Source of the DNA: Rhynchobatus australiae
Taxonomy: Eukaryota
DNA length: 64,000 bases
Direction of reading: 5' to 3'
Assembly (NCBI GenBank): GCA_034780895.1
Contig: JAUZTB010000118.1
Location: 40,853,200-40,917,199 of the forward strand
Numbering within the stretch: the first letter of the stretch is position 1; the number at the start of each line of letters is the position of its first letter. Below the pieces are notes generated by a model, which saw only the letters and a list, made by a program, of their open reading frames with translations, did not search any database and was not told where the DNA came from. Of the stretch, positions 33,420 to 35,490 are shown in pieces. Both the position numbers and the translations under genes were made by a program.

Positions 33420-34440
33420 TTTAATATTTTGTTCAAGAGATGGCATAGTCTCGAGTGTGTTTGGATTTCAGTGATTCAGTAAGGTCCCACACTGGAGGCT
33501 GGTCTACAAAGTTAGGGCACATGGAAGTGAAGGTAATGTAATTAGTTATCAGGCAAACAGCAAAGAGTGGGGAAAAAATAGATCATTCACAGGTTGGCAA
33601 GATGTGACTAATGGAGCACTGCAGAGATCATTGCTTANNNNNNNNTAGGCTCCCACTTTTCACAACCTGCAACATGGAAAAATGTAGAATAGTACAGCAT
33701 AGGAACAGGTCCTTTGGCCCACCATGTCTACGTCACCCGTGATGTCAAAATAAAACTAACCCCATATGCCTGCATATGGTCCATATCCAGGTAACATCCT
33801 GGTGAACCACTTCTGCACCCTCTCCAAAGCTTCCACATCCTTCCTTCAGTGTGGCAACCAGAACAGCACACAATACTCCCAACATGGCCTGACCAAAGTT
33901 TTACACAGCTGCAACTAACCTGCCAACTTTTTTGCTCAACACCCTGATCAATGAAGGCAAGCATTCTGTATGCCTTCTTTATCACCCTATCTAATTTTGT
34001 TACTTTCAGGGAGCTCTGGACTTGCACCCCAGGATCCCTGGCTTTGGTCCCCTCCGCCACATCATTATAGACCAGTTGTAAAGCTGGACAGAGAAAATAG
34101 CAATTGGAGTTTACTTCACACAAGTGTGAAGTGCTGCATTTTAGGAAGTTAAATGGAAGTATAAAGTAAATGGTAGGACCCTTTGTGCTCATTGTCAGTG
34201 CTCCTAAGGGTCCTACCATTTACTGTATACTTTTGTCTAGTATTTGACCTCCCAAGATGCAGCACCTTTTACTTGTCTGGATTAAACTGCATCTGCTATT
34301 TCTCTGCCCAACTTTCTAACTGATCTCTAATGATGTGGCTGAGGGGACCAAATGCCATATTTTCCAGTTTGCCAGTGTTACGAAACTAGGTGGGATTATA
34401 ATTGGGGAGGTGGATGTTAAATGACTTCAAGGGACTACAG
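33420..34440. mobile_element. Nested CR1 cluster: older + strand copy (33420-33670, resuming at 34329-34440) interrupted by a - strand copy (33685-34328)
   Basis: Plus motifs ttggatttcag...aaggtcccacac and aatgatgtggctgaggggaccaaatgc...aaactaggtggg (ND.DEGTKC...TKLGG). Minus ORF LDRVIKKAYRMLAFIDQGVEQKSWQV and minus 3' tail at about 33690. Confidence 0.85.
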
Positions 34441-35303: not shown

Positions 35304-35490
35304 TGGAAGAACTCAGCAAGTCAGGTAGCATCAATGGAGGGACATAAACGTTTGATGTTTCAGGTCGAGACCCTTCATCAGGAAATGTCGACTGTATTTC
35401 CCTCCATAGATGCTGCCTGACCTGCTGAGTTCCTCCAGCATTTTGTGTGTGTTGCTCAAGATTCCAGCATCTGCAAAATCTCTTGTGTCT
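35304..35490. mobile_element. Palindromic Penelope-terminus-derived element; best-preserved copy, left end lost in a gap
   Basis: tggaagaactcagcaagtcaggtagcatcaatggaggga versus tccctccatagatgctgcctgacctgctgagttcctcca. Confidence 0.9.
35354..35381 (-). ncRNA. Minimal type I hammerhead ribozyme core, probably an inactive relic
   Basis: Minus strand CTGATGA-A-GGGTC-TC-GACCT-GAAAC-ATC. Conserved CUGANGA and GAAA boxes with stem II are present. Stem I is disrupted and the ACGT palindrome has decayed to ACAT. Confidence 0.7.

Follow-up and report, generated by a model that had tools for sequence, protein, structure and literature searches.

Head-to-head hairpins formed by the 3′ ends of a Penelope-like element, with hammerhead ribozyme relics, in Rhynchobatus australiae

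Inverted insertions of EN+ Penelope-like elements, i.e., a 5′-truncated copy with an adjoining inverted copy, are described in the text to Fig. 2 of PMC8557442, for Adineta Pen2a (PMC3846280) and for D. virilis (PMC2377424). Such inserts have a 30−40-bp tail at one end, target duplications of the 8−10-bp class and microhomology at the joins. Metazoan pLTRs harbor minimal hammerhead ribozymes (PMC4209133) in which stem I is 5 bp long, the 5-bp stem II starts with a G-C pair, an extra base follows A9 and the minimal stem III is palindromic; opposite-strand hammerhead pairs 100−700 bp apart are already noted there for Schistosoma. With the Anolis Poseidon element PAc, both strands are extended, the two reverse-transcription (RT) starts are located a tail apart and uncleaved RNA is used (PMC11167929). 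In L1 twin priming, as outlined in PMC2912911, both target ends also prime, the products contain an inverted junction, and full-length copies carry an extra 5′ G. Non-LTR retrozymes, which are summarized in 10.64898/2026.07.22.740005 as non-coding, pLTR-derived units with a type I hammerhead, are found in Chondrichthyes as head-to-tail tandems with intact ribozymes.

The repeat family discussed here was encountered in a 64,000-nucleotide stretch of the R. australiae genome (the window). It consists of defunct ends of a retroelement class that is already known, and the inverted-pLTR arrangement is published as well (PMC8557442; review PMC6765202). The value of the family lies in the evidence it offers on the origin of inverted ends in Penelope-like elements, a process called undefined in PMC8557442. 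Its units share with inverted EN+ insertions the adjoining inverted copy, the one-end tail, the short target duplications and the microhomology joins, but comprise only the last 100−133 nt, number tens of thousands by extrapolation and are piled at one 5′ position. The hammerhead has the stem lengths, the extra base and the palindromic stem III given above for metazoan pLTRs, except that one large subfamily has A4, G8 and A9 are separated by a C in another, and the window copies are broken. As for PAc, two 3′ ends are found a tail apart and the template appears uncleaved; unlike PAc, the element is Neptune-type, the sense strand of its start region is GU-rich (AC-rich in PAc) and its open reading frame (ORF) appears to begin past the tail (locus L280) rather than in stem II. 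The likeness to L1 includes the inverted junction and the extra 5′ G, except that both arms copy the same segment, not different parts of one RNA. The units also resemble retrozymes in being pLTR-derived and non-coding with a type I hammerhead, but are arranged head-to-head. In a literature search outside repeat databases (Repbase, Dfam), subscription journals and supplements, neither a description of this shark/ray family nor one of the 5′ stop at stem I discussed below was found.

A repeat-model search across the window yields ten arm matches of one repeat. Head-to-head inverted arms, as described in the initial annotation, are verified at 648−762/773−865, 1944−2045/2057−2186 and 35304−35383/35382−35490. 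In the last of these, the focal copy, the left arm (35304−35383, minus strand) is a pLTR end covering model positions 4−83, with its outer end hidden by a run of N, and contains the hammerhead core (35354−35381, minus strand), composed of CUGAUGA, an extra A, stem II, GAAA and UC. The right arm (35382−35490, plus strand) begins with the GAAA box, ends with a ~33-nt tail and overlaps the left arm by a 2-nt microhomology (35382−35383); the copy holds one core, not two. The second unit is composed of a tail-less arm that begins at stem I and has decayed boxes (1944−2046, minus strand), a copy-specific centre filler (2047−2056) and a tailed partner arm with a decayed core (2057−2186, plus strand). 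This unit (1944−2186) is flanked by a degraded target duplication, and the insertion, at 1950, is also present in sequencing run X23, the flanks of which differ by 2−3%. The third unit consists of a tailed arm of an older subfamily (644−762, minus strand), in which stem II is closed by U-A and a C lies between G8 and A9, and a tail-less, decayed partner arm (773−865, plus strand). Where a further two-arm unit had been placed (27572−27705), an inverted left piece is indeed present, but it is only a tail end of ~40 bp (27572−27611, minus strand), and the right arm, decayed and of the older subfamily, runs from stem II onward (27610−27703, plus strand). The single arms reported near 48580 and 49925 correspond to a decayed fragment at 48589−48650 (minus strand) and a decayed arm beginning at stem I at 49927−50020 (plus strand). 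An arm with an upstream UTR and endonuclease end is an addition to the earlier list: this longer copy (46029−46484, plus strand) comprises the last endonuclease codons, a pyrimidine-rich 3′ UTR and a tailed arm with a broken core (46350−46484). All of the copies in the window are inert relics.

The arm corresponds to the 3′ terminus (pLTR) of a Neptune-type Penelope-like element that is abundant in the genome. A Penelope origin had been proposed from the window and is supported by long copies, in which RT, GIY-YIG, a ~350-bp UTR and the arm follow in this order. In four of 30 fetched loci with an exact 38-nt hammerhead motif, ~350 bp of pyrimidine-rich UTR and the GIY-YIG C-terminus precede the arm, and in 15 of 30 endonuclease loci, by our count, the arm lies 289−369 nt past this C-terminus. 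DKG, the RT motifs, the CxxC linker and CCHH are all present at one locus (L141), and a CX2-5CxxC linker is found ahead of the endonuclease in L138, L141 and L149. The DKG/CxxC/CCHH motif set is listed in PMC8557442 for Neptune and Nematis, and the label “Neptune-type” is to be read as a putative, motif-based assignment. The Atlas score for GIY-YIG is 0.97, and the GIY-YIG C-terminal peptide has 40,224 first-look candidates. For the RT piece, which falls below the Pfam cut-off (E 0.009), there are 86 relatives, the top ones from rays and sharks and the best (70%) from a ray. The endonuclease piece was unmatched in a Pfam search, a homolog search with linker and endonuclease gave none among 996 candidates, and a PDB sequence search also gave none. 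An intact full-length element was absent from 50 loci of the endonuclease search and its follow-up and from 30 N-terminal loci, many of which are gapped. The tail runs straight into the ORF N-terminus in one of these 30 N-terminal loci (L280, of a related subfamily), with the junction at ~560−800 in ORF orientation (C64:101521392−101524568). Separately, three annotated ray/skate host-gene isoforms (P0066, P0070 and P0078) contain pieces of the element RT, which suggests exonisation or annotation artefacts.

The 38-nt hammerhead consensus assembled in the initial annotation is real, i.e., it is found letter for letter in 81 genome copies (reversed control, 0). Core boxes, stems I and II and a minimal stem III are present in family members, in support of the minimal type I assignment, and the predicted fold of one copy (L075) forms stems I and II. 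As stated earlier, 35381−35354 (minus strand) is the sole core in the window: a two-strand scan finds the boxes together with stem II nowhere else. The earlier statement that no window copy is fully intact is borne out as well; this core has 0 stem-I pairs and has lost the stem III pair, and its predicted fold is without stem I. Motifs with boxes, stem II and at least four stem-I pairs number only two in 716 kb. An Rfam scan returned nine matches up to E=10, none of them a hammerhead, which is not counter-evidence because minimal hammerheads are poorly modelled. The stem covariation score, obtained from 33 of 35 position-picked segments (two were dropped for a register shift), was reached by 129 of 500 shuffles, and one pair changes from C-G to U-A in 8 of the 33; no covariation excess is expected because the copies decay neutrally. 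In the hairpin RNA, each core would be predicted to pair with the antisense arm.

Two variants of the core mark subfamilies. The large A4 subfamily has A, not U, at hammerhead position 4 (window example, 2007−2046), and in an older subfamily a C separates G8 from A9, frequently accompanied by a compensatory U-A pair closing stem II (window 726−765; L037, L070, L172 and L185). Intact hammerheads also occur as same-strand pairs 174−406 bp apart (C64:3329600/3330006, C94:12108875/12109056 and C118:8443230/8443404), which are candidates for active dimers, retrozyme-like tandems or local duplications; tandem arms are seen in L143 and L144.

A position-picked sample of 716,465 non-N bases (the window, 200 kb beside it and 60 spaced pieces) contains 135 arm matches, 36 of which form 18 head-to-head pairs. 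This number corresponds to about 25 pairs per Mb and extrapolates to tens of thousands of hairpins in the genome; judged from sequence, such a density would imply many intronic double-stranded RNA stretches in the lineage. The copies are old, the arms within one unit differ by 17.5% on average, and an empty insertion site was not found in the contigs of four sequencing runs.

Each of these hairpins probably arose as a separate insertion, now dead, of the last 100−133 nt, in which twin-primed cDNAs were joined head-to-head. The centres were collected with a pattern matching 115 times on one strand and 120 times on the other; of 61 loci, represented by the 100 matches listed, 57 were analysed. 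Together with 30 similarity matches, these 57 centre-picked units form a set of 87, of which 81 had both arms detected and six were dropped. Target duplications with a score of at least 9 and a length of 9−16 bp flank 35 of the 81 units vs 0 of 243 mismatched-flank controls, and in 51 centre-picked units a tail is present on one arm in 40, on neither in nine and on both in two. The 57 copies among the matches listed have 56 distinct centres, the sole identical pair being located 913 bp apart.

These centres bear directly on the two options offered in the initial annotation. That short insertions with inverted ends arose repeatedly holds, given the 56 distinct centres. An independent mobile family, in which the whole hairpin moves with its central ribozyme pair, would agree with the regular size, the target duplications and the ~25 head-to-head pairs per Mb, but it fails on the distinct centres and on the lack of private majority variants relative to long copies. 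A centre shared among dispersed copies, as expected of a MITE-like hairpin family, is absent from the 57 copies among the matches listed. Also the pairing of each core to an antisense arm in the hairpin RNA speaks against such a family, as does the finding that none of the 81 units has a one-strand A-to-G editing scar (largest 6 vs 1), and we regard it as highly improbable.

The joins themselves are informative. A copy of at least 5 nt of the ribozyme region is found in 31 of the 57 centres vs 16 in shuffles (maximum 22). At 73 loci, the arms are joined inside the ribozyme via microhomology, and the focal copy is of this type; among the 50 loci listed of the 73, no pile-up of joins at the cleavage site was seen by eye, and the joins are spread through the ribozyme. 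Because fold-backs with long centres also occur, the hairpins constitute the short end of a size range. An example is L305 (C11:37704610−37707783), where a tailed arm, UTR and endonuclease end are inverted against a 5′-truncated ORF.

For the separate-insertion reading we infer, by analogy with the systems described above, the following steps. A staggered target cut would let both ends prime reverse transcription at two internal start sites, the two cDNAs would run off the capped RNA 5′ end at stem I, and the cDNA ends would be joined head-to-head with a short fill copied from the ribozyme region. The template would be uncleaved because the arms span the cleavage site. Alternatively, one cDNA could make the second arm by snap-back self-priming, with the endonuclease trimming the tail from one side. 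Self-priming is proposed in PMC3846280 and tail resolution by the endonuclease in PMC8557442. Snap-back would be consistent with fillers that often copy the core region and with the subfamily letters shared by the two arms: among the matches listed, the letter at core position 4 is common to both arms in 53 of 57 units vs 54% expected, and subfamily letters are common in 66 of 76. Arms of one subfamily within a unit also fit the separate-insertion reading. The CpG sites of the two arms agree at about chance. On the other hand, both arms independently reach the same terminal base, the centres are mirrored beyond 2 nt in just 7 of 36 units, the base at −1 differs between the arms in 18 of the 36, and both-strand extension occurs in vitro (PMC11167929). 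Taken together, these data make snap-back unlikely.

The terminal base reached by the arms is the A that opens stem I. Among the matches listed, 112 of 114 fold-back arms retain no more than 3 native bases ahead of this A, where uniform breaks would put 37% of arms within 3 nt; the comparison covers the upstream side, because the centre pattern requires both arms to reach stem I. By our reading of the position-picked sample, ~30 of 59 ribozyme-reaching arms start at stem I, and these belong to at least three subfamilies. Genome-wide, the A is immediately preceded by a non-native base in 1,419 exact matches and by four native pyrimidines in 5,526, and 23 of 30 loci of the former kind lack the UTR. 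Among the matches listed, 33 of 45 fold-back arms with such a base have G there vs 29% expected. When solo and fold-back copies are taken together, only a weak excess of G is seen (10 of 23), and a hand count gave 39 G among the first 100 matches listed of solo and fold-back copies. The site matches YYANWYY, the initiator consensus, in 14 of 19 UTR-bearing arms.

For L1 and SVA, it is accepted that the extra 5′ G derives from a reverse-transcribed cap (PMC2912911). Judged from these patterns, the stop at stem I likely marks the RNA 5′ start. A more detailed proposal is that the hairpins are a fossil map of 5′ ends, in which the cap would sit on the first base of stem I, the ribozyme would stay uncut during reverse transcription and a protein dimer would prime both target ends at the two start sites closest to the RNA 5′ end; we consider this possible but put it forward tentatively. 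If so, the promoter position and the in vivo integration geometry would be recorded in tens of thousands of hairpins. The stem-I stop also predicts an exact transcription start. Because the stop is at stem I, not at the cleavage site, cleaved RNA is argued not to be the main template, in agreement with in vitro data (PMC11167929). A single capped RNA does not easily account for 9 of 36 units, where G at −1 on one arm is paired with the native C on the other. A pyrimidine run ends at the stop, which also coincides with a tract resembling a 3′ splice site; in D. virilis, helix I marks the end of an intron and the start site lies ~120 nt upstream of the ribozyme (PMC2377424, PMC4209133). Splicing of a fixed short exon to the CAG ahead of the core was rejected, since the bases preceding the G vary, and a template switch to a similar internal motif (arm position 72−80) was rejected by eye, as the fillers do not continue that sequence.

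The short arm, with putative promoter, ribozyme and RT start, could also be a non-autonomous, SINE-like master that forms a hairpin with a new centre at each insertion. About half of the 59 ribozyme-reaching arms of the position-picked sample are without UTR by our reading, A4 is found in 74 of 114 fold-back arms vs 31 of 100 UTR-bearing copies (hand count), and long/short labels are non-randomly distributed on the tree (19 changes vs 30.9; 0 of 500 shuffles). However, the majority sequences of long and fold-back copies are identical or one site apart within each subfamily, the largest clade without long copies holds 6 of 102 leaves, and the long set is biased to the U4 subfamily by the query. 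The skew in the tree labels is attributed to subfamily proportions and query bias, with some room left for short masters, and a SINE-like origin of the hairpins is on balance quite improbable.

As to the host gene, a BNC2 coding exon is located at 13069−13167 (plus strand), followed by an intron of ~145 kb; the next exon is found ~94 kb past the window end. The intronic location given earlier is correct for the copies to the right of 13167, but those at 650 and 1950 sit upstream of the first matched exon. Because the exon is on the plus strand and the focal core on the minus strand, the core is antisense to the BNC2 pre-mRNA. Hairpins within the BNC2 intron are plausible, the focal copy having a predicted −88 kcal/mol, and, as regards the ribozyme relics also expected in this pre-mRNA, no sense-strand copy in the window has an intact core. 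A separate, nested inverted repeat with arms of 54, 81 and 27 nt lies at 34043−34352, and the frame beneath it presumably resembles the 3′ part of a LINE.
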